Positions 6,148-30,965 of a stretch of DNA of 64,000 bases are shown in pieces (within the stretch, counting starts at the first letter, position 1; each line of letters begins with the position of its first letter). Both the position numbers and the translations under genes were made by a program. Below the pieces are notes generated by a model, which was not told where the DNA came from, made no database searches, and saw nothing but the letters and a program-made list of their open reading frames with translations. Origin of the DNA: an uncultured Bacteroidota bacterium (lineage in GTDB: Bacteria > Bacteroidota > Bacteroidia > Bacteroidales > GCA-2748055); the NCBI GenBank assembly GCA_963713725.1, contig CAVQMZ010000006.1, positions 227,591 to 291,590 of the forward strand. Reading direction: 5' to 3'.

Positions 6148-6176
6148 AAATTTGTCCTCATTCCCTTTCTCTGTAA

Positions 6177-8784: not shown

Positions 8785-9108
8785 GTGGATGCCCTCTATT
8801 ACAAAAATCTGAACCTGTTTTTCTCCCGATACCTGAATATTGAGGTATGGGATCAGGCAGCCATTGAGATCAGTACGGATAATGGCACTACCTGGAACCC
8901 AATCTGGGAGAATAATTCATATCTAAGTGATTTTCAATGGTTTCAGACTCGCCTATCTATCCCTGATGAATATTCAAGATCGGAAATGTTAAAAGTCCGC
9001 TTTAAGCTGGGTCCCACCGATGGCTTTAATAATTATTCGGGTCAATATGATGACATCTACCTGACCGGAGAATTTATTTCCAGGGATGTGGGGTCTCCCG
9101 ATGGATAA
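8785..9108 (+). CDS. fragment: MAM-like domain tail
   Basis: LNLFFSRYLNIEVWDQAAIEISTDNGTTWNPIWEN...VRFKLGPTDGFNNYSG; it lies in the same frame as the preceding TAA-interrupted segment. Confidence 0.55.
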   Translation: MDALYYKNLNLFFSRYLNIEVWDQAAIEISTDNGTTWNPIWENNSYLSDFQWFQTRLSIPDEYSRSEMLKVRFKLGPTDGFNNYSGQYDDIYLTGEFISRDVGSPDG

Positions 9109-11674: not shown

Positions 11675-13525
11675 GTGAGGAACGCAGGGAACCGGGCCAT
11701 TCCTTCCGGTGAACCCATTCAGGTGGGATATCAGATTGACGGCGGAGCCATTGTAATGGATCAGATAATTCTCTCACAGAACCTCCTGCCGGGCCATACC
11801 TTCGACTTCACTTTCTCCAACAGTGGGACAGTGCAGACCGGTCAGTGGTACGATTTTACCGTTTTCTCCGACTATGACATCGATTCAAAACGACTCAACG
11901 ACACCATCATTACTTCAGTGGGAGTATTTGAAACACCTGACATGGATCTGGGAGATGAATTCCAGGTAATTCCGGGCTTTGAGCATACCCTGGATGCCGG
12001 TCCGGGATTTGTTTCCTACGAATGGCAGGATGGAAGTACAGACCAGACCTATACCATCACAACTCCCGGGGTTGGAAAGTACAGTGTGACTGTAACTGAC
12101 CTGAACGGGTGTACAGCTTATGATGAGGCAGATGTGATGCTTGCCGTACCCGATGTTGGCATCCTGGAGCTGAGTTTTCCTGTCACCACCTGTCACCTCG
12201 AGAATGAGGAACATGTGGAGGTGATTGTTAAAAACTTCGGGAACTGGGATATTGAGTCCGGTGCCACCATTCCTGTTACCTACTCCATTAACGGAGCTGA
12301 GGAGGTAAGTGAAAGCCTTGTACTGGAAGAGGATTTTGAAAACGGCGCAGAGCTGAGCTATATCTTCAGCCAGGTGGAAGACTTCAGTGAACCCGGTCGT
12401 TATGATATCATGGCCTATACAAGCTATGAGTCAGACCTGGTTCCATCCAACGACATCATCCTTGTGAGTGTGGATCATTTTGGCAGCCCCATTGTGGATA
12501 TTGGAATGGGATCAGACACCATGCTGATTTTTGAACCAATCACCCTTGAAGCAACTCCGGGCTATGCCTCCTACCAGTGGCAGGATGGCAGTACAGAAAG
12601 CGATTACCCCATCACAGATCCCACTGCGGGGTGGTACAGGGTGATTGTCACAGGTGAAAACGGATGTGCCACTCATGACAGTGTTTACGTGGCCTATGAC
12701 AGGCCCGACCTGGCCATAGCCAGCATTGCCTCACCCGCATCATCCTGTGAAACAGATGCCCCTGCACTTGTATCCATGGAGATCATTAACAATGGTTATT
12801 ACCGGATCTCCACCAGTGATACCCTTACCATTACATATTCGGTGGACGGCGGATCCTCCTTCATTGAACAAATTCAGCTGGACAATGAACTTCCACTTGG
12901 TGAATCAAGGATTCTGACCTTTACCGAAGCCTATGACTTCTCAAGTCCCGGGACCTACCAGATGCAGGTCAGCCTGATCTGGAGTTCGGACCAGAATATG
13001 GCCAACAATCTGCTTACGGGTAGTGTCACTACCTGGGAAAACCCGGAAGTTGCCATCAATGACGGAGCCGATACCCTGATTACAAATCTGCCTGCAACGC
13101 TGGAAGCCAGCCCCGGCTTTGCCTCCTATCAATGGCAGGACCAGTCAGCGGGATCCGCATACCAGGCCACACGATACGGGACATTCTGGCTTACTGCCAC
13201 AGACGATCATGGTTGCTCTGGTGGTGATACAGTGGTACTGGTTTCTCTTACCTCCGCCGGATCAGGCATGGCAGCGGCGGGAGCCGTGAAAATTTACCCG
13301 AATCCTGTGAAGGAGCGCCTGCATGTGTCCATCGATCTGGATGTGGAAAAGCAGGTAAGTATAGAGCTTTATTCCATTACAAATGCCCTGATCTACCGGG
13401 AGGATGTGAAACAGGCCATGGTAAGTGAAAGACAGATTGATGTTCAGGACCTTCCCCCGGGGACTTATTACCTGAGGGTCATGACGGATTCACAAGCTCA
13501 TAACTTCCTGGTGATTGTGGAATAA
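11675..13525 (+). CDS. fragment (intact 3' third): three CARDB-like plus Y.WQDGS modules and a T9SS type A CTD
   Basis: VRNAGNRAIPSGEPIQVGYQIDG, VIVKNFGNWDIESGATIPVTYSING and MEIINNGYYRISTSDTLTITYSVDG alternate with SYEWQDGSTDQTY, SYQWQDGSTESDY and SYQWQDQSAGSAY. The C-terminus KIYPNPVKERLHV...LPPGTYYLRVMT..FLVIVE is the Por/type A tail. Confidence 0.85.
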   Translation: MRNAGNRAIPSGEPIQVGYQIDGGAIVMDQIILSQNLLPGHTFDFTFSNSGTVQTGQWYDFTVFSDYDIDSKRLNDTIITSVGVFETPDMDLGDEFQVIPGFEHTLDAGPGFVSYEWQDGSTDQTYTITTPGVGKYSVTVTDLNGCTAYDEADVMLAVPDVGILELSFPVTTCHLENEEHVEVIVKNFGNWDIESGATIPVTYSINGAEEVSESLVLEEDFENGAELSYIFSQVEDFSEPGRYDIMAYTSYESDLVPSNDIILVSVDHFGSPIVDIGMGSDTMLIFEPITLEATPGYASYQWQDGSTESDYPITDPTAGWYRVIVTGENGCATHDSVYVAYDRPDLAIASIASPASSCETDAPALVSMEIINNGYYRISTSDTLTITYSVDGGSSFIEQIQLDNELPLGESRILTFTEAYDFSSPGTYQMQVSLIWSSDQNMANNLLTGSVTTWENPEVAINDGADTLITNLPATLEASPGFASYQWQDQSAGSAYQATRYGTFWLTATDDHGCSGGDTVVLVSLTSAGSGMAAAGAVKIYPNPVKERLHVSIDLDVEKQVSIELYSITNALIYREDVKQAMVSERQIDVQDLPPGTYYLRVMTDSQAHNFLVIVE

Positions 13526-13528
13526 TGT

Positions 13529-14368
13529 TCAGCTGATATCGGCGATAACAGTGTACTGGGTTTTGCTTAACGATCTGGAATGCCTGAACAGCTTCAGAAA
13601 GTGGGGTTGGATATCCGGATCCTCGAAATAGGACCATTCTCCTCTTATACTGAATGCGGGGTGGTAAGATTCCAGGTCACCGGCCTGTTTGACTCCAAAC
13701 TGATAATGGTCTCCGGCTGTGGTTCCGGCTCCCCTGCGCATCTTCCTCTCCACCATCTTCTTGCGAAATCCCCGGGTGTATTTCTCATGAACCACCTCCA
13801 TAACGAGCCTGGATTGACTGAAGGATTCGGCCATCCGTTTAAGTGTTTGCACCACCTGTTCTTTTGGGAGATACATAAACAGGCCCTCGGCAATGAAAAG
13901 CACCTGTTTTGACTGAAGCTTCTTAATCTCTGAAATCCAGGCCTCTTCCAGCACTGATTCAGCGAGAAGCCTGTAGCTAATATTACCACCCAGCAGATCC
14001 TGCTTGATCTTAATAACAGGCGGAAGATCCAGTTCCATATAATTGAGGTCAGCGCCCCCAAGCCTCCAGAAACGGGTATCCAAACCGCAGCCAAGGCTTA
14101 CAATAAGCCCCTCAGGAAATTCAGCCAGAAAATCTTTGCATAGCACATCATACTTCCTGGCCCTGAGGGAAATATGCCTGGTGAGCATGGGTGAAAGCCT
14201 GGCGCTTAAAATCCGATTTCGGGAGTCTCCGGGAAGTGACTCCAGGAGCTTCCCGAGCAAGACCTCACCCATGGGATCCTTCAAAAGTGGCTTCGGCTTT
14301 CGGGACTCATAAACCCTTGACCGAAGGGTGATCAGGGCTGTTTCTGAAACTTCACTGAGTGGATACAT
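13529..14368 (-). CDS. class I SAM-dependent O-methyltransferase (LCMT/TcmP-like)
   Basis: 279-aa ORF with VSLGCGLDTRFWRL...MELDLP..I..K...LFIAEGLFMYL, typical of the leucine carboxyl methyltransferase family. Confidence 0.7.
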   Translation of the reverse strand: MYPLSEVSETALITLRSRVYESRKPKPLLKDPMGEVLLGKLLESLPGDSRNRILSARLSPMLTRHISLRARKYDVLCKDFLAEFPEGLIVSLGCGLDTRFWRLGGADLNYMELDLPPVIKIKQDLLGGNISYRLLAESVLEEAWISEIKKLQSKQVLFIAEGLFMYLPKEQVVQTLKRMAESFSQSRLVMEVVHEKYTRGFRKKMVERKMRRGAGTTAGDHYQFGVKQAGDLESYHPAFSIRGEWSYFEDPDIQPHFLKLFRHSRSLSKTQYTVIADIS

Positions 14369-17053: not shown

Positions 17054-17251
17054 CTATTTCCTCTTCAATATATCAGGGATACTGAGATCTTTGCAAATCT
17101 TCCTGCAAAGATTCTCTTTAATATCTGAGTGTCTGGGAACAGTAGATATCTCTCCGGTACTTGTGTTTTTGTACAATGAGTGTCGGCCGCCTTCTCTTAA
17201 TAACATGCAATTGTTCTGCTCAAGATATTTTATGAATTTGTTTCGTTTCAC
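17054..17251 (-). CDS. hicA: type II toxin HicA-family mRNA interferase
   Basis: 65 aa: MKRNKFIKYLEQNNCMLLREGGRHSLYKN..GEISTVPRHSDIKENL. This fits the YcfA/HicA pattern with a conserved G-x-H. Confidence 0.8.
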   Translation of the reverse strand: MKRNKFIKYLEQNNCMLLREGGRHSLYKNTSTGEISTVPRHSDIKENLCRKICKDLSIPDILKRK

Positions 17252-17484
17252 TACAAACTAAAGGAGAGTGTTTGAGTAATCAGCTTTTTTACACTTCTAT
17301 TCTGGTTAGCCTTTTGACTATCTCGTCTTTCTTCAAACATAAGATTAATCGCATCTGTCAAGTTTTCCTTGGCTTCTTCAATTGTTTCTCCCTGACTATT
17401 AATTCCTGGAATTTCCTCAATATATGCAAGGTAGCCACCTTCTTCGCAGGGTTCAAATATAGCTGTCATTTCAATACTGCTCAT
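17251..17484 (-). CDS. hicB: HicB-family (UPF0150) antitoxin, short form without an obvious DNA-binding tail
   Basis: 77 aa: FEPCEEGGYLAYIEEIPGINSQGETIEEAKENLTDAI. Its stop overlaps the hicA start by 1 nt. Confidence 0.75.
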   Translation of the reverse strand: MSSIEMTAIFEPCEEGGYLAYIEEIPGINSQGETIEEAKENLTDAINLMFEERRDSQKANQNRSVKKLITQTLSFSL

Positions 17485-17714: not shown

Positions 17715-18230
17715 ATGGACGAACTAACATTGTCGCTTTATTTTGGAAAAAGAAAAAAAACGAAAGAAAGTGGATCGAGGGCGCATACGGCCACTTTGCA
17801 TGAACCGATTTCTCCGCTTATTATTTCATTTAAGAGGGAAGGGCGGTTCCATTATTTCATGATCAGGGTGAAAGAGGGTCAGGCTGCGGATGTCACCGAA
17901 CAGTTAAGCAGTAAATAGGAGCGGATCATCCCGGAAGTTCCTTTCGAATGCAGCTACCTGGAAGATATGGATGATATTGGATACCTGAATGAAAAAAGAC
18001 AGGCAACCCTAATTCTGCTATTCACGATTCTGGCAATGCTGATTGCCTGTCCCTTTGCCTTTTATGCCATTATCCGGTGGCTGCAACATTTCGCGTATAA
18101 AACCCATATGAGCTGGTGGGTCTTTATGCTTGCCGGGGTAAAAGCCATCGTAGTATCCATCCTGACGGTGAGCTGGCAAACCATAAAGGCTGCCAGGAGG
18201 AATCCTGTAGATGCGCTTCATTATGAATAA
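17715..18230 (+). pseudogene. remnant of the C-terminus of an FtsX/MacB-type ABC transporter permease
   Basis: ORFs 17715-17918 and 17967-18230 share one frame, separated by an in-frame TAG (17916-17918) at the position of a Trp I recall as usually conserved (..K[W]ERIIPEVPFE..). The tail reads WLQHFAYKTHMSWWVF...AARRNPVDALHYE. The RTKEIGIRK loop and one TM appear to be deleted, and no N-terminal 600 aa is present. Confidence 0.6.
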
Positions 18231-18292: not shown

Positions 18293-19936
18293 ATGGCAAA
18301 GCTTTTCCAACCCAAATTGTTTTCTCTCATTCGCTCCGGGATAGGGAAAGAACAGCTTACCAATGATATTTTCGCCGGAATCGTAGTAGGGATTGTGGCC
18401 CTTCCCCTGTCAATCGCTTTTGCAGTCGCATCAGGTGTATCGCCTGAAAGAGGATTGATCACGGCCATTGTGGCAGGTTTTGTGATCTCCCTCCTTGGCG
18501 GGAGCAGGGTTCAAATCGGAGGGCCCACAGGGGCCTTTGTCATCCTTATCTTCGGAATAGTCAACCAGTATGGCATCAACGGCCTGATTATTTCCACCAT
18601 GATGGCCGGGCTGCTCCTCATGCTTTTCGGAATCTTAAAACTGGGAACACTTCTCAAATACTTTCCCCATCCCTTGATTGTGGGATTCACCAGTGGCATA
18701 GCTCTTGTAATCTTTTCCACGCAGGTCAGGGACGCCCTGGGCTTGCCAATTGAAAAGGTTCCGACCGGTTTCCTTGAGAAATGGAAGGTCTATTTGGATC
18801 ATATTGATCAGATCAACCCTGCTGCCCTGGCCATCACCGCAGGCACCATATTGATCACGGTACTCTCAAAAAAGTTAATCCCCCGTATCCCGGGCTCAAT
18901 CATAGCCATCATCTTATTCACATTAATTGTAAAATTGTTTCACCTGCCTGTCCCCAGTATCGAGACCTTCTTCGGGACCATACCGAAAACGGTACAGTTG
19001 AGCCTCCCCGAAATCCATTTCCATGAGTTGGGTAAGTATTTTTCACCTGCTCTGGCCATTGCCCTGCTTGGTGGAATTGAATCCCTGCTTTCGGCGGTGG
19101 TGTCTGACGGTATGATCGGTGGCAAACACCGGTCGAATACGGAACTGATCGCCCAGGGAATTGCCAACCTGCTGACACCCGTTTTCGGAGGCCTGCCCGC
19201 AACAGGTGCTCTTGCCCGGACTGCCACCAATGTCAGGAACGGGGGAAGGACTCCCCTGGCAGGTATCACCCATTCCATTACCCTGTTGCTGATCATGTTG
19301 TTATTCGGTCAATGGGCCAAATGGATTCCAATGTCCTGCCTTGCAGGTGTCCTGATCGTGGTGGCATACAACATGAGCGAATGGCGTTCGTTCAGATCCA
19401 TTCTGAAAGGCAACTATTTTGATATTCTTATTTTGCTGACAACCTTTTTTCTTACCGTTCTTTACGACCTGACAATCGCCATAGAAATCGGTGTTGTGCT
19501 TTCCGCTTTGCTTTTTATGAAGAGGATGGCAGACATAAGTGATAAAAGAATCCTCAATATCCTGGATACAGATGTCATTGAAGATTATAAGACGATCCCG
19601 GATGGCATTTCCATATTCGAGATCAGCGGTCCACTGTTTTTTGCCTCGGCCCGCAGGTACTCGGAAGTAATTGAGGAGATCGGTCTAAGGAGCAGGATAC
19701 TCATCATCCGGATGAGACATGTTTCCTTCATTGACGAGACCGGTCTGAAAAACCTTCGTGATGCCATAAAAATACTCAGGGCAAAGCAAATCACTATAAT
19801 CCTTTCCGGGGTAGCCCCGGAGGTCAGGAAAAACATCAACAAATTAAACGATGCCGGGCTGAATGATGACTTCATATGCGATTCCTTTAAAGAGGCCCTT
19901 GGAAAGGCAAATGCGGAATTGGGGATGATTATTTGA
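18293..19936 (+). CDS. SulP-family anion transporter with a C-terminal STAS domain
   Basis: 547 aa, multi-TM, with AGIVVGIVALPLSIAFAVASG and GGIESLLSAVV... motifs and a STAS tail (FEISGPLFFASA...IIRMRHVSFIDETG). Confidence 0.85.
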   Translation: MAKLFQPKLFSLIRSGIGKEQLTNDIFAGIVVGIVALPLSIAFAVASGVSPERGLITAIVAGFVISLLGGSRVQIGGPTGAFVILIFGIVNQYGINGLIISTMMAGLLLMLFGILKLGTLLKYFPHPLIVGFTSGIALVIFSTQVRDALGLPIEKVPTGFLEKWKVYLDHIDQINPAALAITAGTILITVLSKKLIPRIPGSIIAIILFTLIVKLFHLPVPSIETFFGTIPKTVQLSLPEIHFHELGKYFSPALAIALLGGIESLLSAVVSDGMIGGKHRSNTELIAQGIANLLTPVFGGLPATGALARTATNVRNGGRTPLAGITHSITLLLIMLLFGQWAKWIPMSCLAGVLIVVAYNMSEWRSFRSILKGNYFDILILLTTFFLTVLYDLTIAIEIGVVLSALLFMKRMADISDKRILNILDTDVIEDYKTIPDGISIFEISGPLFFASARRYSEVIEEIGLRSRILIIRMRHVSFIDETGLKNLRDAIKILRAKQITIILSGVAPEVRKNINKLNDAGLNDDFICDSFKEALGKANAELGMII

Positions 19937-20130
19937 TATTAAAATATTTGCTTTCTAATTCATTAACTGCCAGCTATATAATCAAAATAAACGTGTCCTT
20001 TAAAAAACTAATTTCAAATTCATCAAAATAAAATATCCGCAGCGTGTTTTTGAATTCAAAATATTCTTAATATTGCGGAAAATTATACCATTATTTTAGC
20101 GACAAAACAGACAGGCATTATCGTAGATAA

Positions 20131-21399
20131 ATGAAATCGCCAAGATCGCAGTCATTGGCCTTCTCCACGCAGGAGGACGATGAAACATTTTCTCCGGCAG
20201 CTGAACCTCCATCCGGCAGAGAAATCCCCAGAAAGTCCTTAGAGAAAGATACTTTTTCATCCAGTCAAAGTAGTGACAGGACAAAGCGTTTCAGGAATAG
20301 GTATTACCATGATGTGGGCGACCAGGACTGGAACAGCTGGGCCTGGCAGCTGGGCCATAGTCTTAACTCCTGGGATCAGCTCCAGAGATTCATCAAGCTA
20401 TCTCCGGACGAACTGCATTCGGCAGAACTGAAAAAGAAGCTTCCTATCAGGATTACTCCCTATTATGCAAGCCTGATGGATCCGGAGGATTCTTTGCAAC
20501 CGATCCGCCGAACCATGGTCCCGGTTTTTAACGAGCTGATTCTTTCGCCGGAAGAAATGGCTGATCCCCTGGGAGAGGAAAACCAGAGTCCTGTACCCCA
20601 GCTGGTGCACCGTTATCCCGACAGGGTGTTGTTTCTCACCACCGGTGTTTGTGCAGCTTATTGCCGTTACTGCACCCGCTCCCATATGGTTTCAAAAAAG
20701 GACAAGGTTCATGCCCGGATTGCACAATGGGATGCTGCCCTTGACTACATCCGGATGCATCCGGAAATAAGGGACGTACTTCTTTCCGGGGGTGATCCCC
20801 TGACCCTGACCAATGCAAGGCTTGAATACCTTCTCTCGAATCTGCGCGCCATTCCGCATGTGGAGATCATCCGGATTGGCACCAAGGTTCCGGTGGTACT
20901 TCCTCAGCGCATCAGCCCTTCGCTGGTGAGAATGCTTAAGAAATATCACCCCCTCTTCATGAGCATACATTTCACTCATCCCGAGGAGATTACGCCCGAA
21001 GTACAATATGCCTGCAATATGCTTGCCGATGCGGGCATTCCGCTGGGGAGCCAGACCGTGCTGATGAAAGGGATCAACGACCAGGCGGAGATCATGAAAA
21101 ACATGTATCATCTTCTTCTAAAAATCAGGGTCAGGCCTTATTATCTCTATCAGTGCGATCCCATACCGGGATCTGCACATTTCAGAACTCCTGTAGAGAA
21201 GGGGCTTGAAATCATCAGGGGCCTGAGGGGCTTCACCTCCGGATATGCCATTCCGCACCTGGTGATTGATGCCCCGGGTGGCGGCGGGAAAATACCCATC
21301 CTGCCTGACTATATTGAGGAAAAGAATGATGAGGGATACGTTCTGAGGAATTACCAGGGAAAACGTTTCCTGTATAAAGAGCCAAGGGCTGAAAAATAA
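20131..21399 (+). CDS. kamA: lysine 2,3-aminomutase (KamA-family radical SAM/PLP enzyme)
   Basis: CAAYCRYCTRS (CxxxCxxC), GGDPL, YYLYQCDP and LVIDAPGGGGKIP (PLP Lys and both Asp implicated in binding the Lys epsilon-amino group). The true start may lie downstream of 20131. Confidence 0.85.
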   Translation: MKSPRSQSLAFSTQEDDETFSPAAEPPSGREIPRKSLEKDTFSSSQSSDRTKRFRNRYYHDVGDQDWNSWAWQLGHSLNSWDQLQRFIKLSPDELHSAELKKKLPIRITPYYASLMDPEDSLQPIRRTMVPVFNELILSPEEMADPLGEENQSPVPQLVHRYPDRVLFLTTGVCAAYCRYCTRSHMVSKKDKVHARIAQWDAALDYIRMHPEIRDVLLSGGDPLTLTNARLEYLLSNLRAIPHVEIIRIGTKVPVVLPQRISPSLVRMLKKYHPLFMSIHFTHPEEITPEVQYACNMLADAGIPLGSQTVLMKGINDQAEIMKNMYHLLLKIRVRPYYLYQCDPIPGSAHFRTPVEKGLEIIRGLRGFTSGYAIPHLVIDAPGGGGKIPILPDYIEEKNDEGYVLRNYQGKRFLYKEPRAEK

Positions 21400-21405
21400 T
21401 CAGAT

Positions 21406-23134
21406 ATGTTAATCATCAGAAGGATCTCGGACGGTTCAATGCCCGTGGATCAAATAGCAATTGAACAGGTACAGCAAATTTTGAAAACGAGGTTTCCGGA
21501 CCTGCGGAATGAGGAAATAGACCTGATTCCGGAACATTTAAAGAATCCCCTGAAATTCCGTTTTCGATCCACCCTCCTGGTGGCTGAAAACCGCAATGGA
21601 ACTGTACAGGGCTTTGCCATGGTTCTGTATGCCCCGGACCTGAACTTTTGTTTACTGGATTATGTGGCTTCAAAAAAGGGTATAGTGGTAAGCGGAATCG
21701 GCAGTTCCCTCTATGAAAGTGTAAGAGAATTTGCCCGTGAACTGAAGGCTACAGGTGTATTCTTTGAATGTCTGCCCGACGAGCCCCTTGTGTGCAAGAA
21801 CGGGTCTCTCATAGAGCAAAACAGGCAAAGGCTGAAGTTTTATGAGCGGTTTGGAGCATTTCCCATAGTTAATACCCTGTATGAGACTCCAGTAAGCCCG
21901 GAACAGGACGAATGCCCTCCCTACCTGGTGTGTGACCTGTTATTTCCAGGCTCTACACTGTCCAGAAAAAATGCGAAGAAGATTATCAGGGCTATCCTGG
22001 AAAGAAAATATGCCTATTTATGTCCGGAAGATTATGTAAGGGGAGTGGTGGATTCTGTATCGGACGACCCTGTTCAATTCAGGCCGCCAAGGTATATCAA
22101 GAATTATTCTCCTGCCCCCGCCAGCTCCAATGGCAGGAATGATAAAACCATCACCCTGATCGTCAATGATAAACACGCCATCCACCACGTTCGTGAACGT
22201 GGGTATGTGGAGTCGCCGGTACGAATTTCATCCATACTTACCGAACTTCAGAAAAGCGGCTTGTTTCGCGAAATTCCGGTCACCACGTTCTCGGAGGACC
22301 ACATCCGCGAGGTTCATGAAAGGAAATACATCAATTATTTTAAAAGGGTTTGTGAAACACTGCCGGAGGGAAAATCTATTTATCCCTATGTGTTTCCTGT
22401 AAGGAACAATAACCAGGGCCCCTGCTGATGATTCCGTTCTGGCCGGATATTATTGCATTGATACCTTCACTCCTATAAACAGAAATGCATTCCTGGCAGC
22501 AAAACGTGCGGTGGACTGCTGCCTGACAGGCGCCACCGGTCTGTTGAAGGGCAGCGGTGCCGTCTATGCCCTGGTCCGTCCCCCCGGCCACCATGCAGAA
22601 AAGAAGGTGTTCGGCGGATTCTGTTACTTCAATTCTGCCGCAATTGCCGCCAATTTCCTGAGCCGTTATGGAAAAGTAGCCATGCTGGATGTTGACTACC
22701 ATCATGGGAACGGTCAACAGGACATATTTTACGACAGAAAGGATGTATTTACAGTGAGCATCCATGGTCATCCTTCTTTCGCCTACCCCTATTTCTGCGG
22801 GTTTTCGGAGGAAAAGGGAGCAGGAGAAGGCCTCGGTTTCAATCTGAACTATCCCATGAAGGAACAGCTCACAGGGGAAGAATACTATAAGGTGCTTGGA
22901 AAGGCCCTGGCCCGGATAAAGCGGTTCCAGCCCTCCTACCTTGTACTGCTTCTCGGGCTGGATACGGCAAAGGGAGATCCTACCGGAACCTGGAGTCTCT
23001 CGTCAAAAGACTTTTACAGGAACGGAAATCTAATTGGAGGACTTAATATCCCAACCCTGATCGTACAGGAAGGCGGATACAGGAACCGGGTGCTCGGAAC
23101 CAATGCCACGCCACTTCTTCCAGGGCTTTTATGA
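21406..23134 (+). CDS. GNAT-like domain fused to a histone-deacetylase-family amidohydrolase; one frameshift near 22412-22428
   Basis: The N-terminal 230 or so aa include LLDYVASKKGIVVSGIGSSLYE (acetyl-CoA loop-like). The HDAC part has RPPGHHA, DVDYHHGNG, GLDTAKGDP and QEGGY. ORFs 21406-22428 and 22511-23134 join via frame +1 (TRAPADDSVLAGYYCIDTFTPI). Confidence 0.75.
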
Positions 23135-23164
23135 TGCGATTAATTATAAAAAGAACTGACTTGC

Positions 23165-24172
23165 ATGTTAATAGGACTCACATACGACCTTCGGGATGAA
23201 TACCTGCAAATGGGATTCAGCGAAGATGAAACCGCAGAATTTGACCGGGAGGACACCATCTCTTCCATCGAGAATACCCTCGCAGAGCTGGGGTATAAAA
23301 CTCAGCGTATCGGGCACATTAAGAATCTTGTCAGCCGCCTGAACCAGGGAGACCGGTGGGACCTTGTCTTCAACATTGCAGAAGGAATGTATGGAGCAGG
23401 AAGAGAGGCCCAGGTGCCTGCCCTGCTGGATGCTTACAGGATACCCTACGTGTTTTCCGGTCCGCTGATACTGGCACTGACCCTGGACAAAGCTCTGACT
23501 AAAATTATCGTGAGGGATGCAGGAGTGGCTACACCCGACCATGCAGTTGTTTATGACAGGGCTGACATTCAGAAGGTAAAGCTTCCTTATCCACTGTTCG
23601 TAAAACCCCTTGCCGAAGGCACGGGCAAAGGCATAGATCCTGAGTCGGTGATTTCTGGCCAGGCGCAACTGGAAAAGAAATGTGCTGAACTTTTAGACCG
23701 TTACCAGCAACCGGTACTCGTGGAAACATACCTGAGCGGACGGGAATTTACCGCTGGAATAGTGGGGACGGGTGAGGATGCAAGGTGCATCGGGGTGATT
23801 GAAATCATTCTGAAAGACAATGCCGAAAAAGGTGTTTACTCCTATGTCAACAAGGAAGAGTGTGAGGAACGGATCATTTACAGCCTGACCGACCAGGATG
23901 CCGTGGATGCATGTTCAGCACTTGCCTTAAAGGCCTGGAAGTGCCTGCGTGCAGAAGATGGGGGAAGGGTGGATATTCGTTTCGACAAAATGGGTAATCC
24001 TCACTTCCTCGAAATCAACCCGCTGGCAGGCATGCACCCCGAACACTCGGATCTGCCCATCCTGGCCGGACTATACGGAATTCCATATTGTGAACTGATG
24101 AGGATGATTATGGATTCGGCAGTCAAAAAAACCAAAAATGACATGTATGAGAGATCTGCTCATTTTAACTAA
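23165..24172 (+). CDS. ATP-grasp ligase, D-alanine--D-alanine-ligase-like (paralog 1)
   Basis: 335 aa: DKALTKIIVRDAGVATP...YPLFVKPLAEGTGKGI...VLVETYLSGREFT...GRVDIRFD..G.PHFLEINPLAG. Confidence 0.75.
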   Translation: MLIGLTYDLRDEYLQMGFSEDETAEFDREDTISSIENTLAELGYKTQRIGHIKNLVSRLNQGDRWDLVFNIAEGMYGAGREAQVPALLDAYRIPYVFSGPLILALTLDKALTKIIVRDAGVATPDHAVVYDRADIQKVKLPYPLFVKPLAEGTGKGIDPESVISGQAQLEKKCAELLDRYQQPVLVETYLSGREFTAGIVGTGEDARCIGVIEIILKDNAEKGVYSYVNKEECEERIIYSLTDQDAVDACSALALKAWKCLRAEDGGRVDIRFDKMGNPHFLEINPLAGMHPEHSDLPILAGLYGIPYCELMRMIMDSAVKKTKNDMYERSAHFN

Positions 24173-25112
24173 TTCAATATCTGATCAGGCCTTGGAGGAT
24201 GAACTGGATGTTCTGGTGCAGGCCGAAGCTGTTGAACGGGCCGCAAAGGAGTTGGGACTCAGGCCAAGACGGGCATCATTTGGCCTGAATCTTGAACCAG
24301 TGGCTCAAATCCTTGAGTGTCATCGACCCGATTTGGTTTTCAACCTGGTTGAAACAGTGGGTGAAAAAGGAGCCCTGATCCATCTCTGTCCATCCCTGCT
24401 GGATGCGTATGGAATCCCCTTTACAGGTTCCGGTACCTATTCCCTGGTTACTACCACCGACAAAATCAGGACTAAAAAAATCCTGAAGGATCATGGAATT
24501 CGCACTCCCGAGTGGATTCAGCCGGGCCAGAAACGAATGCCGGCAAGGAACAAAAAATACATCCTGAAACCTATCTGGGAGGATGGCTCTGCCGGGATTA
24601 CTGATGAATCCATTATTGATGGGAAAACCATGGACCTCAACCGCCTTTCGAGGGATGGACTCCTGAAAGATGCCTTCCTGGAAGAGTATATTGATGGACG
24701 GGAATTTAATCTCTCTATGCTTTCAGACAGTCAGGGGCACGCAGTCATGCCGGTTGCAGAAATGTTGTACATGGATTACCCGGCAGCGAAGCCAAAAATT
24801 CTGAATTATGCTTCCAAGTGGGACGAGTCATCATTTGAGTATCATAATACCATCCGTTCATTCGATCTTTCCCCGGCGGACGAGACGCTTATTGAAAAGA
24901 TGTCAGAAATCAGTATGCAGTGCTGGAAAATCTTCGATATGAACGGCTACATCAGGGTGGATTTCAGGGTCGATGATCAAAACCGGCCCTGGGTTCTTGA
25001 GGTGAATGCAAATCCGTGCCTGTCACCCGACGCAGGATTTGTGGCTGCCTGCCATCGGGGTGGAATTAATTACAAAGACATGGTTAACAGGATTATATCT
25101 GCTGCCAGATGA
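24138..25112 (+). CDS. ATP-grasp ligase, Ddl-like (paralog 2)
   Basis: 324 aa: DKIRTKKILKDHGIRTP...YILKPIWEDGSAGI...EEYIDGREFN...GYIRVDFRVDDQNRPWVLEVNANP. It overlaps the upstream gene. The alternative start is ATG 24147. Confidence 0.75.
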   Translation: MTCMRDLLILTNSISDQALEDELDVLVQAEAVERAAKELGLRPRRASFGLNLEPVAQILECHRPDLVFNLVETVGEKGALIHLCPSLLDAYGIPFTGSGTYSLVTTTDKIRTKKILKDHGIRTPEWIQPGQKRMPARNKKYILKPIWEDGSAGITDESIIDGKTMDLNRLSRDGLLKDAFLEEYIDGREFNLSMLSDSQGHAVMPVAEMLYMDYPAAKPKILNYASKWDESSFEYHNTIRSFDLSPADETLIEKMSEISMQCWKIFDMNGYIRVDFRVDDQNRPWVLEVNANPCLSPDAGFVAACHRGGINYKDMVNRIISAAR

Positions 25113-25621
25113 AGAAACCAGATCACATCCTTCTGCGCGGGGAAGTATACCCCGGAGACCAGGATCGCGTAAAAGCTGTCGTAACTTCAACCGGGTTTTT
25201 CAGGGAGGATGAAGTCCTTGTAGCAGCCGAACTTGTGGAGGAACGCCTTGAAAAAGGGGCCGCCAGCGGATATGAATTTCTATTCGCGGAAAGGGATGGT
25301 GAGATCCTTGCTTACAGTTGTTTTGGACTGATCCCATGCACCCTGCATAGCTACGATCTCTACTGGATTGCTACCCACAGGGATTACATGAACCGGGGCA
25401 TCGGAAAGTACCTGCTGCAGGAAAGCGAGAAAGCAATCTTTGCCCTGGGCGGCCAGGGAATTTATGTGGAAACCTCTTCACAGGATCAGTATGCGCCAAC
25501 CAGGGCCTTCTATGAAAAGAACAAGTATTTGCTTCAGGCCAGGTTTGAAAATTTTTATGCCCCGGGCGACGATAAGTTGGTTTACGTGAAAATCTTTCAC
25601 GGCCAGGAACAAAATATATAA
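25109..25621 (+). CDS. GNAT-family N-acetyltransferase
   Basis: 170 aa with HRDYMNRGIGKYLL (R/Q-x-x-G-x-G/A) and an ATGA start/stop overlap with the upstream gene. Confidence 0.8.
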   Translation: MKKPDHILLRGEVYPGDQDRVKAVVTSTGFFREDEVLVAAELVEERLEKGAASGYEFLFAERDGEILAYSCFGLIPCTLHSYDLYWIATHRDYMNRGIGKYLLQESEKAIFALGGQGIYVETSSQDQYAPTRAFYEKNKYLLQARFENFYAPGDDKLVYVKIFHGQEQNI

Positions 25622-25626
25622 GGGAA

Positions 25627-25645
25627 ACAGGGATCCTGTATTTTT
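25627..25645 (+). terminator. possible weak terminator closing the kamA operon
   Basis: ACAGG-gat-CCTGT hairpin followed by ATTTTT, 6 nt after the GNAT stop. Confidence 0.35.
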
Positions 25646-26419: not shown

Positions 26420-27775
26420 ATGAAAAGAAGAGATTTTTTTACCAGTTCAGCCATTGTCGGCGCAGCATTACCCCTGGGAGTGGCCCCTCTGATGAGCTCA
26501 TGCAGTGGAAATGAAAATAAAAGTAGAAGTAAGGCCAGCTTTACCCCTGAGCAACTGGGTATGCCTTCTTTTGCAAAACAGGCGCCCGACGGAAAACCCT
26601 TAAAAGCTGCACTGATTGGATGTGGCAGCCGGGGAACCGGTGCTGCAGTTCAGTTCCTGAATGCAGGGAATGACCTCTCCATTGTTGCCCTGGCTGACGT
26701 GTTTGAAGACAGGCAGCAACAATGCCGGAGATCCTGATGGAGAAGAAGAACAACAAGGTGGAAGACAACATGTGTTTTCTTGGATTTGATGCTTATAAGA
26801 AAGTGCTGGATCTGGATATTGACCTGGTCCTGATCGCCACACCCACTCACTTTCACCCGGATCAGTTCAAGGCTGCTGTGGCAGCCGGAAAGCATGTCTT
26901 CATGGAGAAGCCTGCAGGTGTGGATCCGGTGGGTATCCGGACGGTACTTGTGGCTGCCAAACAGGCAGAAGCCAAGGGACTGACCGTGGTAACCGGAAAC
27001 CAGCGCCGTAACCAGCGCGATTACTGGGAAGCATACATGCAGATCAAAAACGGGGCCATCGGAGATGTGCTTTCGGCCACCGCGCATTGGAACCAGGGAG
27101 CATGGTGGAACAAGCTCAAGCGCCCTGAATGGTCTGATATGGAATACAATATTCGTAACTGGTTTAATATAAAATGGTTAAGTGGCGATCACCTTCTCGA
27201 CCAGGGGGTGCATAACATCGATGTGGCCACATGGTTTACCGGCTGGGTTCCGGAAAAGGCAGTTGGCTATGGGGGAAGGGCCAGGCGAATGACCGGTGAT
27301 ATATTCGACTTTTTCAGCGTGGATTACCGCTATGCCAATAACAAACGGATGATGGCCACGGCCCGGCAGATTGATGGCTGCGACACGAATGTATCCGAAT
27401 CGGTCATGGGAACCGAAGGTGTACTTTATACAGGGGGGCAAGAACATGCGGATCGAGAATATGAAGGTGAGGTCATATGGCAATATGATTATGAAGACAA
27501 TCCCGGTGGTCGGGGGCCATGATCAGGAGCATGTTCATCTCGTGGAATCCATTCGTCTGAACCAGAAGGTCAACCAGGCTGAAGATATCGCCATCTCCAC
27601 ACTGGTTTCAATCATGGGCCGGGAGGCTGCCTATACCGGTAAGGAGATTACCTGGGAGGAAATCATGGCTTCCGACCTGTATTACGGTCCCACCGAATAT
27701 GCCATGGGACCCCTGCCCGACTACAAGGAGGGTGTTGCCCCGGTTCCCGGCCGTGATCCAAAAGCTCCTCTATAG
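26420..27775 (+). pseudogene. TAT-signal Gfo/Idh/MocA-family oxidoreductase, at least two frameshifts
   Basis: MKRRDFFTSSAIVGAAL (twin-Arg) ...KAALIGCGSRGTGAA (Rossmann). It continues through ORFs 26722-27522 and 27371-27775 in other frames. Confidence 0.7.
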
Positions 27776-27779
27776 AACT

Positions 27780-29306
27780 ATGAACAAAAAAGCAGGGAAA
27801 TATAGGTGGAGGTGGATCTTACCCATAGCCGGGCTCATTATGGGAGCCGGAATGATAATCGGAGTAAACAGGGTCGTACAGCATACAAGCACCGATGAAT
27901 ATTGCCAATCCTGTCATATCCACACCGGGGCCGATGAGGCATGGACCAAATCAACACATTTCACCAATGAAAGCGGGGTTCGGGTAGGCTGTGCGGAATG
28001 CCACCTTCCACCCAAGGGTAGATTTCACGCATTTCCGCACCAAGGTCCGAACAGGACTCCACGACCTTTATGCCTATCATTTCAAAGACCATGAGTCCTT
28101 TGACTGGGAACGAAAGCAGCAGCTGGAGTATGCAGTGAACATCGTTTATAATGAATCCTGCGTAGAAATGTCATCAGAACCTGTATCCGGATGGCCTATC
28201 CGATGACGGGGGGAAGGCCCACCTCTATTATGAAATGAATGCCGAAAAACTGGAACTGCACTGCATAAACTGTCACCTGGATGTTGGACATCATCTTCCC
28301 GGCTACGAGCATAAGCAGATGACTGGGATTCCCGTATCAGATGAGGGTCACGAAGGAAGTATTTTCAGAAGCGGCCATTGTCACCGAATTTGAGGACTTC
28401 ACCGAGTTTATTCCCAACACTTCGGTTTCCTTTAATATGATTGCCATACAGGGAGGTGACATTCCAGATGGGAAGTCCGGATGATGAGCCACTTACGGAA
28501 TAAAAATGAGGGACCCGTCCGGACGGTAACGTATCATCCTTTCTTCATGGCAGAGGTGGAGGTTAGCTGGGATGAGTACTGGACCTTCTATAGCCAGACC
28601 ATGTCCGAAGGCAGGCTGGCTCCGGAAACAGTTTATGCAAACAATGCAAGCAATCTGGATGCAATCAGCGGACCAACGCCTCCTTTCGGAAATCCTGGAC
28701 AGGGCTGGGGAAGCGGGGACCGTCCCGCCATCACCATGTCCCATTATGCAGCCGTAACCTACTGCCAGTGGTTGTCCAAGGAGACAGGAAAAAAATACAG
28801 GCTTCCCACCGAAGCTGAATGGGAATATGCCTGCCGGGCTGGTACCCAAAGCCCTTATTTCTTTGAAGGAGATCCTAAAAAGCTTTTCCAGTGAAGGTTT
28901 GCGACAGCGGATTTTCGGTGCAGATACCACCCATATCAGCGGTTTTAGCGTGTATGCCCTTAACTCGGGGGGAAAGACCCAGGAACCATCCTTTGTGAAA
29001 GCAAATCCCTTTGGACTCAAGAATATGGCAGGCAATGTATTTGAATACTGTTCCGACTACTATTCGGCCGATGCATATGCTCAGACTGAATAGAAGCTAA
29101 GCGATCCAAAAGGGCCTCGATTCAGGAAGCGAGCATGTGATCCGGGGTGGAGCTTACCTTCAGATGCAGCAGAACTGAGGTCAGCCGCAAGGGCTTCCAC
29201 CGAAACCGAAGCATGGTTGAAGACCGACTGCCAGCAACCCAAAAGCATCTGGTGGTACTCCGATATGAAAGGGATTGGTTTCAGGGTTGTGTGTGAGCCG
29301 GAATAG
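27780..29306 (+). pseudogene. NapC/NirT-type tetrahaem cytochrome fused to a formylglycine-generating-enzyme (SUMF1/FGE) domain; multiple frameshifts
   Basis: There is an N-terminal TM. The haem motifs are CQSCH, CAECH, C-V-x-CH (restored by a 1-nt shift near 28165) and CINCH. The FGE-like part follows: [57 protein letters not shown] and the tail GIGFRVVCEPE. Confidence 0.65.
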
Positions 29307-29429: not shown

Positions 29430-30176
29430 ATGAGATATAAAAGATATATCCTGCTCATTTTTAATAAATTTAAAATCGCCCTGATTGATCTGGTCCCAAT
29501 CATTGCGGTGGTGGTTTTTTTTCAAATGGTTGTAATACAGCAGCCCTTCCCCCAAATTGGAGAAGTCGTTTTTGGTTTCGTGTTCGTAATCATTGGATTG
29601 ATGCTTTTTGTTGAAGGATTGGAGATTAGTTTATTTCCCATTGGAGAAACCCTGGCCTATGCCCTCGCAAAAAAGGGAAGCCTCCTGTGGTTGATGATTT
29701 TCTCATTTTCACTCGGATTTTCAACCACCATTGCCGAACCTGCCTTAATTGCCGTGGCAAAAGAAGCTGCAAGCATATCTTCCGATGCAGGAATTATTGA
29801 AAATAGCGAAAAAACCCGGGGATTATATGCCCTGGGATTACGATTGACCGTCGCATTTTCAGTAGGTTTGGCCATCGTTATCGGGGTATTGCGTATTCTG
29901 AAGGGATGGCCCATATATTATTTGATCATCGGTGGATATATTCTGGTGATGTTGATGACAGTAATTGCCCCCAGGGAGATCATTGGATTGGCCTACGATG
30001 CAGGTGGAGTCACTACCTCCACCATTACCGTTCCTCTGGTCACAGCTTTAGGAGTCGGACTGGCCACTGTAATCAAAGGACGAAGTCCTTTAGTCGATGG
30101 TTTTGGCCTGATTGCCTTTGCTTCACTTTTGCCAATGATCTTTGTGATGGCCTATGGTTTATTTTGGTTTAATTAA
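29430..30176 (+). CDS. DUF1538-family integral membrane protein
   Basis: 248 aa, multi-TM: GFSTTIAEPALIAVA...LAYDAGGVTTSTITVPLVTALGVGLA...DGFGLIAFASLLPMI. Confidence 0.7.
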   Translation: MRYKRYILLIFNKFKIALIDLVPIIAVVVFFQMVVIQQPFPQIGEVVFGFVFVIIGLMLFVEGLEISLFPIGETLAYALAKKGSLLWLMIFSFSLGFSTTIAEPALIAVAKEAASISSDAGIIENSEKTRGLYALGLRLTVAFSVGLAIVIGVLRILKGWPIYYLIIGGYILVMLMTVIAPREIIGLAYDAGGVTTSTITVPLVTALGVGLATVIKGRSPLVDGFGLIAFASLLPMIFVMAYGLFWFN

Positions 30177-30188
30177 TATTGGGTATAT

Positions 30189-30965
30189 ATGGATGGATTT
30201 TTGATGGATTTTGTCCTGGTATTGTTACATACACTGAGAGACATTTCACCCATCTTATTATTGGTTATTATTTTTCAGCTAGTGGTTCTAAAACAACCAA
30301 TACCTCATTTAAAAAGGGTAATTCAGGGGGGTATTTATGTTGTGCTGGGGCTTGCTCTTTTCCTCGTTGGATTGGAAAAAGCGCTATTTCCGGTGGGGAA
30401 TATTATGGCTGCTCAACTATCTGATCCTGAATTTTTAGGAAAGTCGGGAGAGGAATTGTCATATTGGGGGACATATTACTGGATTTACATATTTGCAGCC
30501 CTGATCGGGTTTGCCACAACTATCGCTGAGCCCTCGCTCATTGCTGTGGCATTAAAGGCCAGTGAGGTATCTGCGGGTACCATTAGTCAATGGGGACTTC
30601 GTATTATAGTGGCTCTTGGAGTGGCTTTTGCTCTGGCTCTTGGAACATTTCGAATCGTAACAGGAACACCATTGTATTTTTATATAATTGCAGGATATTT
30701 GGTGGTGATCATTCAGACCATATTTGCCCCAAAAAAACTCATTGCACTGGCCTATGATTCCGGAGGCGTAACTACTTCCACGGTTACTGTCCCCCTGGTG
30801 GCAGCTCTTGGATTGGGGCTATCAAGCGCAGTACCAGGCAGAAACCCAGCCTTGGATGGATTTGGACTCATTGCCTTTGCCAGTTTGTTCCCGATTATCA
30901 CTGTCTTAGGATATACTCAATTAGTAGAATTGAAAACTCGATTTTTTAAAAATAAATACAAATAA
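30189..30965 (+). CDS. DUF1538-family integral membrane protein (paralog)
   Basis: 258 aa with the same motif set (GFATTIAEPSLIAVA, LAYDSGGVTTSTVTVPLVAALGLGL, DGFGLIAFASLFPII). Confidence 0.7.
   Translation: MDGFLMDFVLVLLHTLRDISPILLLVIIFQLVVLKQPIPHLKRVIQGGIYVVLGLALFLVGLEKALFPVGNIMAAQLSDPEFLGKSGEELSYWGTYYWIYIFAALIGFATTIAEPSLIAVALKASEVSAGTISQWGLRIIVALGVAFALALGTFRIVTGTPLYFYIIAGYLVVIIQTIFAPKKLIALAYDSGGVTTSTVTVPLVAALGLGLSSAVPGRNPALDGFGLIAFASLFPIITVLGYTQLVELKTRFFKNKYK

Follow-up and report, generated by a model that had tools for sequence, protein, structure and literature searches.

Among the described systems, AblA/AblB combines a KamA-type lysine 2,3-aminomutase with a GNAT acetyltransferase. 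In the pyrrolysine pathway (PylB/PylC/PylD), a radical-SAM rearrangement of lysine is followed by Ddl-type ATP-grasp amide ligation to a second amine; PylB is not a KamA-family enzyme. In the Ngg/AsnO system, ATP-grasp ligation and GNAT acetylation yield a small N-acetylated peptide solute, N-acetylglutaminylglutamine amide (Ngg). RizA and RizB are two ATP-grasp ligases that act sequentially to build a tripeptide, and ATP-grasp ligase pairs that produce tripeptide antibiotics are known. The window, that is, the whole analyzed stretch of 64,000 nt from an uncultured Bacteroidota bacterium, contains a gene set that overlaps in part with each of these systems. Its features are as follows.

19937..20130, + strand: AT-rich intergenic region upstream of the first gene, a presumed promoter region
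20131..21399, + strand: KamA-family radical-SAM/PLP lysine 2,3-aminomutase, 422 aa (Pfam Radical_SAM, LAM_C)
21406..22428, + strand: 5' part of a GNAT-deacetylase fusion gene, comprising a divergent GNAT and the first ~60 deacetylase residues; a frameshift leads to a premature stop
22405..22418, + strand: frameshift site, a 1-nt insertion compared with L001 and L002 (blastn alignment, reading frames)
22415..23134, + strand: 3' part of the fusion, read in the following frame, an HDAC/APAH-type zinc deacetylase domain (Pfam Hist_deacetyl, E = 8e-60)
23165..24172, + strand: AG1, ATP-grasp amide ligase, 335 aa (Pfam Dala_Dala_lig_C; Ddl fold, not Ddl itself)
24138..25112, + strand: AG2, second ATP-grasp amide ligase, 324 aa (Pfam Dala_Dala_lig_C, ATP-grasp_3)
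25109..25621, + strand: small GNAT N-acetyltransferase, 170 aa (Pfam Acetyltransf_1; PDB 2R7H, E = 2e-36)
25627..25645, + strand: weak hairpin and T-run, a possible terminator (5-bp stem, −5.8 kcal/mol, z = −1.2)

The first-pass annotation had described five same-strand genes at this locus. Four of the ORFs were confirmed, as were the gaps of 6 nt and 30 nt and the two overlaps (35 nt and ATGA), but the second gene is split by a frameshift. As the genes overlap or nearly abut, co-translation is suggested. The hairpin and T-run that had been read as the end of the gene set do exist, but they are weak and no more common than in shuffled sequence (7 such sites observed in the region, 7.7 expected). 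The upstream region (19937..20130) has no Rfam match, and a search of the window and of 26 related loci gave no riboswitch (Na+, c-di-AMP or lysine type). A sigma-54-type promoter was not found upstream of the window cassette, in contrast to the Desulfobacterota relatives, in which the cassette comes with a dedicated sigma-54 activator and promoter, in keeping with a regulated pathway.

The gene set is widely conserved. AG1 relatives are encoded in at least 562 species genomes, as revealed by a scan with AG1. Linkage was counted in the best 80 AG1 loci, with the loci that had enough flanking DNA as denominators: KamA lies upstream of AG1 in 61 of 67 loci, AG2 follows AG1 in all 62, and the small GNAT follows in 48 of 51, compared with 13 of 46 loci (about 28%) for the GNAT-deacetylase fusion. 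The conserved unit is KamA, AG1, AG2 and the small GNAT, and the fifth gene is optional. The order KamA-AG1-AG2-GNAT was found in Bacteroidota, Desulfobacterota, Planctomycetota, Acidobacteriota, Pseudomonadota, KSB1, WOR-3 and Gastranaerophilaceae, that is, in about eight phyla as counted from record titles. The strong conservation of the neighborhood extends well past Bacteroidota, and its identical order in dozens of genomes places the arrangement far beyond chance. Within the phyla the distribution is patchy, and in a few loci AG1-AG2-GNAT occur without a KamA gene within 10 kb. Beyond the four genes, no gene was consistently linked in the neighborhoods of the cassette loci, including any enzyme supplying a co-substrate, any exporter or any importer, and no plasmid copy of the cassette was found.

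The KamA-type protein has an N-terminal extension of ~55 residues and lacks the clostridial C-terminal zinc tail. It passes NCBIfam TIGR00238 (349 bits) and aligns to the Clostridium lysine 2,3-aminomutase (PDB 2A5H) with E = 1e-130. This alignment bore out the motifs and Asp residues noted earlier: CAAYCRYC (CxxxCxxC), YLYQCDP and VIDAPGGGGK are present, and C125/C129/C132, R134, D293, D330 and K337 of 2A5H are kept. All 70 complete linked KamA proteins retain the lysine-binding D293/D330, the carboxylate-binding R134, the PLP lysine K337 and the Fe-S cysteines. Among the specific models, AblA scores best (473 bits), ahead of the glutamate (421 bits) and arginine (387 bits) aminomutases. Both results support the earlier proposal that lysine rather than glutamate is the substrate, and with it a predicted conversion of L-lysine to beta-lysine. 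However, the AblA cut-off of 525 bits is not reached, the AblB family model gives no match to the small GNAT, and two equally conserved ATP-grasp ligases lie between KamA and GNAT, all in contrast to AblA/AblB. As had been stated, no known kamA partner set is present: the AblB and EpmA families had no match within the cluster, and the lysine-fermentation enzyme families had none among the flanking ORFs scanned.

Both ligases resemble Ddl and VanA in fold, and the residues for ATP, Mg and phosphoryl transfer are retained. For AG1, an AlphaFold model (pLDDT 88.5) had Ddl structures as top Foldseek matches (TM 0.75–0.8, 24–26% identity). K97, K144, E180, K215, R255, D257 and N272 (Ddl numbering) are invariant in 58 of 58 AG1/AG2 pairs; E187 and E270 are kept apart from a single conservative replacement at each position, in AG2. 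However, AG1 and AG2 are only 20–29% identical to Ddl/VanA, and the best Ddl model scores for AG1 (152 bits) and the Ddl score for AG2 (113 bits) are far below the cut-off of 243 bits. In addition, the Ddl substrate positions are replaced group by group: S150 by T in AG1 and by A or G in AG2, Y216 by E in AG1 and W in AG2, and L282 by D in AG1 and G in AG2, with G276 changed to C in AG2. The failure of both proteins at every Ddl family cut-off and these replacements uphold the view that neither ligase is Ddl. The invariant acidic residues of AG1 at positions 216 and 282 would suit a cationic amine partner, such as beta-lysine or lysine. AG1 is the more conserved ligase of the cassette (median 58% identity across phyla). 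The two ligases had been called paralogous, which stands, but not as close kin: their identity is about 24% (28% for AG1 and AG2 of the window), which puts them no nearer to one another than either is to E. coli DdlB. The orthologue groups separate cleanly; AG1 and AG2 are ancient paralogues.

The small GNAT belongs to the family of PDB 2R7H (DDE_3044, Desulfovibrio G20), and the 2R7H protein itself is encoded in the same cassette in Desulfovibrio.

At the frameshift near 22411, the relatives L001 and L002 read AATAAT-ACCAGG, one base fewer than the window (AACAATAACCAGG), and intact fusion homologues are uniformly about 580 aa. At least four further split genes occur at 26.4–29.1 kb of the window, and thus an assembly indel is the likelier cause; a real pseudogene is the alternative. 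The N-terminal part is a borderline match to Pfam Acetyltransf_1 in the window, which 17 of 19 family members match, and its AlphaFold model (pLDDT 86) folds as a GNAT, with TM of about 0.76 against GCN5, AAC(6') and 2R7H. The deacetylase part has intact zinc and catalytic motifs (PPGHHAE, DVDYHHGNGQQ, GLDTAKGDP, EGGY), and the intact orthologue L001:8244-9968 matches acetylpolyamine amidohydrolase (APAH) structures best (9GKZ at 3e-69; range 3e-69 to 7e-61). By sequence, the domain is closest to these small-molecule enzymes. Unlike APAH, the fusion has about 250 additional N-terminal residues with a GNAT fold, and its gene often lies inside the beta-lysine cassette. The fusion is an accessory of the cassette, occurs away from it too and is frameshifted in the window, so that the acetylation/deacetylation cycle proposed in the first-pass annotation is not a core feature.

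The remaining systems resemble the cassette in part. The pyrrolysine pathway would share its logic, in which a lysine isomer made by a radical-SAM enzyme is amide-ligated, but the cassette lacks PylD and adds another ligase plus an acetyltransferase, and the significant PDB matches of the ligases, by sequence or by fold, include no PylC structure. With Ngg/AsnO it shares ATP-grasp ligation plus GNAT acetylation, but instead of an Ngg-type fusion and an AsnO amidotransferase it has an aminomutase that forms a beta-amino acid. Like RizA/RizB it has two ATP-grasp ligases, but their only L-amino-acid-ligase match (3VOT, E = 2e-7, ranking second to Ddl among PDB families) is weak and partial. Microviridin/graspetide clusters also contain two ATP-grasp enzymes (about 325 aa) and one GNAT. 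This likeness is superficial: no precursor peptide gene is conserved near the cassette, AG1 and AG2 match Ddl models, and their matches include no microviridin-type model. Lysine aminomutases are not known to take part in graspetide formation.

Taken together, the cassette most likely leads from lysine via beta-lysine and one or two amide bonds to an acetylated small molecule. The KamA-type enzyme would first form beta-lysine (3,6-diaminohexanoate). AG1 and AG2, predicted to be catalytically competent and derived from D-Ala-D-Ala ligase, would each form one amide bond via an acyl-phosphate intermediate, giving a beta-lysine-containing di- or tripeptide-like molecule, and the 2R7H-type GNAT would acetylate a free amine on the product or an intermediate. 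In about a quarter of the genomes, the GNAT-APAH fusion may strip N-acetyl from an aliphatic amine, which would serve turnover or recycling. Which way the ligation runs, and with which partner substrates, is pure conjecture. As an explanation of the whole, we give a beta-lysine amide-ligase pathway to a soluble metabolite a probability of roughly one half. In its favor are the conserved gene order, the retained KamA and ATP-grasp residues, the failed Ddl cut-offs, the compact gene spacing, the APAH-like deacetylase and the sigma-54 control in Desulfobacterota; against it count the missing link to a co-substrate enzyme, exporter or importer, the negative riboswitch search and the loci without a nearby KamA gene.

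An unlikely alternative, albeit the best of the rivals, is an oligo- or poly-beta-lysine polycation, with one ligase starting and the other extending the chain via epsilon-amide links, and with the GNAT and the APAH-type deacetylase tuning its charge, as in polyamine homeostasis. Streptothricins contain a beta-lysine chain with such links. Beta-lysine has a carboxylate and free amines, so that no gene for a second substrate would be needed, and none is linked; the acidic residues at the AG1 nucleophile site and the pairing of acetyltransferase and acetylpolyamine amidohydrolase, typical of polyamine control, also fit. However, the ligases lack domains typical of polymer-forming ATP-grasp enzymes (the match to cyanophycin synthase is weak and partial), exporter or anchoring genes are not linked, and the strongly different substrate residues of the two ligases suggest two different reactions.

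Somewhat less probable is the attachment of beta-lysine to a protein or cell-wall peptide, followed by acetylation, the protein version being modeled by analogy on EF-P beta-lysylation or RimK tailing. The unusual conservation of AG1 and a faint RimI similarity of the small GNAT would agree with this, and there is a precedent in EF-P modification, to our knowledge the only other characterized case of a KamA paralogue with a non-metabolic role. Yet no efp, ribosomal protein, small carrier or precursor peptide gene is conserved nearby, EpmA is absent, the EpmB model gives 258 bits with a cut-off of 369, the patchy spread is unlike that of a core translation function, and the nearest relatives of the deacetylase have small-molecule substrates. 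More doubtful again is a secreted bioactive peptide-like compound made by two L-amino-acid-ligase-type enzymes, as for rhizocticin or phaseolotoxin, with acetylation and deacetylation for self-protection or pro-drug handling. The tripeptide antibiotics and the 3VOT match speak for it, but for specialized metabolites it would be unusual that sequences are so highly conserved and that the same four genes recur in about eight phyla, transporter, resistance and tailoring genes are not linked, and plasmid copies were not found. A grouping without joint function is very unlikely: automated annotation labels both ATP-grasp genes D-alanine--D-alanine ligase, but neither protein reaches the Ddl cut-offs, S150, Y216 and L282 are replaced in both, the GNAT does not match AblB, and the gene order is conserved across phyla.

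The first-pass annotation was thus partly confirmed in its observation and partly supported in its interpretation; to its knowledge no pathway of this composition had been characterized, and no paper describing the gene set was found in the open-access text searched. For the beta-lysine amide-ligase pathway, the best reading of the product, which like its role we infer, is a metabolite resembling a di- or tripeptide that contains beta-lysine and is N-acetylated. According to record titles, the source habitats are mostly anoxic freshwater, groundwater, sludge and sediment and not markedly saline, which weakens the osmolyte version. The cassette is a widespread, uncharacterized biosynthetic gene set of four genes and an optional fifth. 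In its hosts, mostly anaerobic bacteria, it most likely yields a soluble metabolite of the cytoplasm that either serves as a compatible solute or resembles a polyamine.

In the window, six open reading frames (ORFs) follow one another on the same strand:

20131-21399, + strand, KamA-type aminomutase (gene 1)
21406-22428, + strand, first part of the GNAT-deacetylase gene (gene 2)
22511-23134, + strand, continuation of gene 2 in a second frame, which is open from about 22415
23165-24172, + strand, first ATP-grasp ligase (AG1)
24138-25112, + strand, second ATP-grasp ligase (AG2)
25109-25621, + strand, small GNAT (gene 5)

The first-pass annotation had described five genes with spacings of 6 nt and 30 nt, a 35-nt overlap and an ATGA overlap, which is correct only when the second and third ORFs are counted as one gene. 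Its reading of gene 2 as a single ORF did not hold here: frame 1 has its stop at 22428, and the rest of the deacetylase domain is encoded in the next frame. In the alignment, the window contains an extra single base (AACAATAACCAGG, compared to AATAAT-ACCAGG in the two closest relatives). Because the domain runs on in the next frame and the relatives are one base shorter at this site, the two ORFs represent one frameshifted gene; its intact homologs are uniformly about 580 aa long. A programmed frameshift was considered and rejected, since in close relatives the gene is read in one uninterrupted frame. Downstream, at least four further frameshifts occur within 2.7 kb (26420-29093, + strand), where three consecutive genes, for a Gfo/Idh/MocA oxidoreductase with a Tat-like signal, a NapC/NirT cytochrome c and an FGE-sulfatase-domain protein, are each spread over two or three frames. 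The simplest reading of the frameshifts in gene 2 and downstream is an indel-prone assembly; less likely, gene 2 could be a true pseudogene and 26420-29093 a patch of pseudogenes. The hairpin that had been taken to close the operon (25627-25645) exists, but it is weak (−5.8 kcal/mol, z = −1.2), and such structures are no commoner here than in shuffled sequence.

The gene neighborhood is conserved beyond this genome. An alignment scan with AG1, with one genome per species, yielded at least 562 matched stretches that encode a relative, and the best 80 of these were analyzed as loci by tblastn with the window proteins. The same gene orders recur throughout this set: KamA-AG1-AG2-GNAT in 38 of the best 80 loci, KamA-AG1-AG2-fusion-GNAT, in which the fusion is the GNAT-deacetylase gene, in 12, and KamA-fusion-AG1-AG2-GNAT, the order in the window, in four. 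The remaining 26 loci are partial versions, most of which end at a contig edge; a few lack KamA within 10 kb. When only loci with enough flanking DNA are counted, AG2 is present in 62 of 62, KamA lies upstream in 61 of 67, and the small GNAT is found in 48 of 51, the GNAT-deacetylase fusion in 13 of 46. At loci without KamA, the upstream genes are unrelated, and none encodes a substitute enzyme. The hosts, as named in the records, include Bacteroidota, Planctomycetota, KSB1, WOR-3, Gastranaerophilaceae, Gamma- and Alphaproteobacteria, Desulfobacterota (Syntrophales, Desulfobacterales, Desulfobulbaceae) and Acidobacteriota (Aminicenantes, Thermoanaerobaculia). Two isolates, Desulfosarcina variabilis and Virgifigura deserti, are represented among the best 80 loci; cultured strains with the cassette are these two, Desulfovibrio alaskensis G20 and D. 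mangrovi. A search for AG1 on plasmids gave no copy.

Gene 1 matches the Pfam families Radical_SAM and LAM_C and belongs to the KamA subfamily (TIGR00238, 349 bits versus a cut-off of 199), while its score against the AblA equivalog (TIGR03820) is below the cut-off (473.3 versus 525.4 bits). Among the equivalog models, AblA nonetheless scores best (473 bits), followed by the glutamate (421 bits), arginine (387 bits) and EpmB (258 bits) models. The protein aligns to the Clostridium lysine 2,3-aminomutase structure 2A5H (E = 1e-130, numbering used here), with equivalents of the CxxxCxxC cluster (C125/C129/C132) and the PLP lysine K337. D293 and D330, which contact the epsilon-ammonium group of the substrate, and R134, which contacts its carboxylate, are aligned and kept in the window. 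The Fe-S cysteines, R112, R116, R134, D293, D330 and K337 are all kept in 70 of 70 complete linked KamA orthologs. In glutamate 2,3-aminomutase both Asp residues are replaced. The retention of D293 and D330, viewed on the 2A5H structure, therefore argues for lysine rather than glutamate as the KamA substrate, in agreement with the first-pass annotation. Gene 1 lacks the clostridial C-terminal zinc tail. At the other end, its ORF begins about 55 codons ahead of the 2A5H-aligned region, and this stretch (20131-20295) is rich in Ser and acidic residues and looks low-complexity. The N-terminal extension is variable among the orthologs, with 34-158 residues when counted from the first possible start codon, values that may be overestimates.

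AG1 and AG2 have the D-Ala-D-Ala ligase (Ddl) fold. The predicted AG1 structure (pLDDT 88.5) matches Ddl structures at TM 0.75-0.8 and 24-26% identity, and the fold search returned Ddl structures alone, with no closer functional relative. Beyond Ddl, the AG1 profile matched only, and partially, L-amino-acid ligase (2e-7) and cyanophycin synthase (2e-5). Both proteins fall below the two Ddl NCBIfam cut-offs (243 and 246 bits), with 152 and 120 bits for AG1 and 113 and 101 bits for AG2. For a comparison of individual residues, E. coli DdlB, whose sequence was checked to be identical to 2DLN/1IOV, was aligned to 58 AG1/AG2 pairs. The residues for ATP, Mg and phosphoryl transfer expected of catalytically active ATP-grasp ligases are present in both groups: K97, K144, E180, K215, R255, D257 and N272 (DdlB numbering) are invariant in all 58 pairs, and E187 and E270 are invariant in the 58 AG1 proteins, with one conservative E-to-D change each among the 58 AG2 proteins. 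The Ddl substrate residues (Glu15, Ser150, Tyr216, Ser281, Leu282), in contrast, are not retained as a set, the alignment at Glu15 being ambiguous for AG1, and the replacements are specific for each group.

Residues of AG1 and AG2 at DdlB positions (58 pairs)
S150: T in AG1; A or G in AG2
Y216: E in AG1; W in AG2
L282: D in AG1; G in AG2
G276: G in AG1; C in AG2

AG1 and AG2 form two clean ortholog groups, with identities of 48-100% within AG1, 26-98% within AG2, 17-31% between the two groups, and 20-29% between either group and DdlB. The failed cut-offs and the replacement of S150, Y216 and L282 set both proteins apart from Ddl itself, in line with the label "Ddl-like" of the first-pass annotation. 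Because the catalytic residues are kept, the substrate residues are group-specific and the ortholog groups are separate, AG1 and AG2 are predicted to be active amide ligases of the ATP-grasp type, whose specificities differ from that of Ddl and from each other. Their duplication is older than the spread of the cassette.

The product of gene 5 is a 170-aa GNAT that matches PDB entry 2R7H at E = 2e-36, a structural-genomics deposit labeled "putative D-alanine N-acetyltransferase" (locus DDE_3044 of Desulfovibrio G20). In G20-like contigs the 2R7H protein also sits in the cassette, behind an NtrC-type sigma-54 regulator, and in D. mangrovi the fusion gene comes after the 2R7H-type GNAT. Gene 2 consists of a divergent GNAT-fold domain and an HDAC-type zinc deacetylase. 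The N-terminal domain is a predicted GNAT acetyltransferase: 17 of 19 family members match PF00583, and an AlphaFold model (pLDDT 86) has GCN5, AAC(6') and 2R7H as its top structural matches. In a profile comparison, this domain and the small GNAT shared no more than generic GNAT similarity (probability 32%), and the two are not demonstrably paralogs. The deacetylase domain matches the Pfam family Hist_deacetyl (E = 8e-60) and has the HH dyad, the D/H/D zinc ligands and the catalytic Tyr. These motifs hardly vary across the aligned family, and they are readable and intact in the second frame of the window, although the gene is frameshifted. The closest solved relatives are acetylpolyamine amidohydrolases (APAH; E = 3e-69). 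The GNAT-APAH fusion family (~580 aa) retains 58-62% identity across phyla. Because the fusion was found away from the cassette in two of the four contexts inspected, it is a recruited accessory outside the core, and the wider family has a function of its own. Fusion genes without a cassette within 9 kb lie at 9001-10740 of locus L084 (Geoalkalibacter ferrihydriticus) and at 9001-10764 of locus L085.

None of the partner sets of known kamA genes was found, as the first-pass annotation had stated. The AblA/AblB osmolyte operon differs in its acetyltransferase, since neither GNAT matches the AblB model (NCBIfam, E <= 0.001) and the small GNAT is a 2R7H-family member. For EpmB/EpmA, the score of gene 1 lies below the EpmB cut-off of 369 bits, and no aaRS-like gene that could correspond to the LysRS-like partner EpmA is conserved near the cassette. 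Genes for the B12-dependent 5,6-aminomutase, the dehydrogenase and the cleavage enzyme of the lysine fermentation cluster (kamA-kamDE-kdd-kce-kal) were not found: none of the fermentation Pfam families was detected when the genes of the cluster, five in all, and about 20 of the flanking ORFs between 11.7 and 38 kb were scanned, nor were such genes among the recurrent neighbors in the 80 loci. A graspetide (microviridin-type) system, which would have a precursor peptide gene and a microviridin-type ATP-grasp ligase, does not fit either, as neither a conserved small ORF nor a further gene family adjoins the cassette and the top matches of AG1 and AG2 are Ddl-type models only. What the cassette does contain is a KamA family member, ATP-grasp ligases with the residues of active enzymes, a GNAT and, in the fusion, an HDAC/APAH domain. 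It resembles the AblA/AblB osmolyte pathway, extended by ligation steps; pyrrolysine synthesis, where a Ddl-like ligase acts after a radical-SAM lysine mutase; and the synthesis of N-acetylglutaminylglutamine amide by a GNAT and an ATP-grasp enzyme. No published description of the cassette was found in open-access full text, in line with the earlier view that the composition is not that of a characterized pathway, and its genes are mentioned neither in the G20 transposon-library paper nor in the Desulfovibrio sigma-54 regulome paper and its supplements. Thus, the enzyme families are familiar, and the combination is conserved and without prior study in the open-access text.

All-against-all clustering of the flanking ORFs of the 80 loci revealed no other consistently linked gene family, except for a regulator in Desulfobacterota, where an NtrC-type sigma-54 response regulator precedes the cassette. 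Sigma-54-type promoters were found before kamA in 12 loci, mostly of Desulfobacterota, and TGGCA-N7-TTGC promoter-like sites together with an NtrC-type regulator occur upstream of kamA in the Desulfobacterota loci L014, L015, L016, L022, L048, L050, L053, L080, L081 and L083. The window contains no site of this type, and no riboswitch (Rfam) was detected either there or in 26 related loci. The neighbors in the window (a T9SS-sorted protein, an LCM-type methyltransferase, a cNMP-binding regulator, Lnt, HicAB, SulP/STAS, two DUF1538 proteins and CorA) show no apparent connection with the cassette. The closest relative, L001 from an uncultured Bacteroidales MAG, has 83% nucleotide identity over the cassette and is rearranged around it. 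An intact SulP/STAS transporter gene (18293-19936) lies directly upstream of kamA in the window, and a ~150-nt remnant of its 3' end is present in L001; the DUF1538 pair is downstream in the window (29430-30965) and upstream in L001, where the rearranged stretch is 4227-6766. Also upstream of the cassette in the window are a HicA toxin/HicB antitoxin pair (17054-17484, − strand) and an apparent gene remnant, of which only a C-terminal FtsX-like permease fragment is readable (17715-18230, + strand). In the Bacteroidales locus L087, a PemK-type toxin-antitoxin pair (8326-8885) lies between kamA and the GNAT-deacetylase gene. On the G20-like contig L081, the cassette is followed by a SiaC/DUF6272/SpoIIE phosphatase/GGDEF module (10684-14179, − strand), which is probably unrelated to it.

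Taken together, these features suggest a pathway in which KamA, on the strength of its residues and family models, would convert lysine to beta-lysine. AG1, which adjoins KamA nearly always (insertion of the fusion aside) and has acidic residues at the Ddl second-substrate site, would probably use beta-lysine or lysine as the amine or acyl partner. AG2 would form a second amide bond, the small GNAT may cap a free amine, and the APAH-type fusion, where present, could take off such an acetyl group. The product would be a small N-acetylated beta-lysine oligo-amide metabolite, a reading to which we assign a probability of roughly 0.5. A simple osmolyte story is weakened by the lack of a detected riboswitch and of a linked transporter, and by habitats that are mostly non-saline and anoxic. 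Among the other explanations, an oligo-beta-lysine polycation is unlikely, and modification of a protein or the cell wall is more doubtful still. A secreted bioactive compound has only about one chance in ten, and a coincidental grouping of the genes is very improbable.

Carried one step further, and tentatively, the N-acetylated beta-lysine oligo-amide might belong to a new class of metabolites, either cytoplasmic solutes or polyamine-like compounds, made with neither NRPS nor ribosome by a radical-SAM aminomutase and two dedicated Ddl-derived ligases, in hundreds of mostly anaerobic species of about eight phyla, including Desulfovibrio alaskensis G20. Because the cassette is small and self-contained and is also carried by cultured strains, the question is directly testable, and G20 is a genetically tractable carrier. 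If the proposal is true, hundreds of "D-alanine--D-alanine ligase" annotations would be corrected, and the orphan crystal structure 2R7H would gain a function. To our knowledge, beta-lysine has few known fates: it serves as an osmolyte, is fermented, modifies EF-P and occurs in a handful of antibiotics. A further, widespread beta-lysine route with Ddl-like ligases would mean one more family of metabolites, together with two new specificities of ATP-grasp enzymes.
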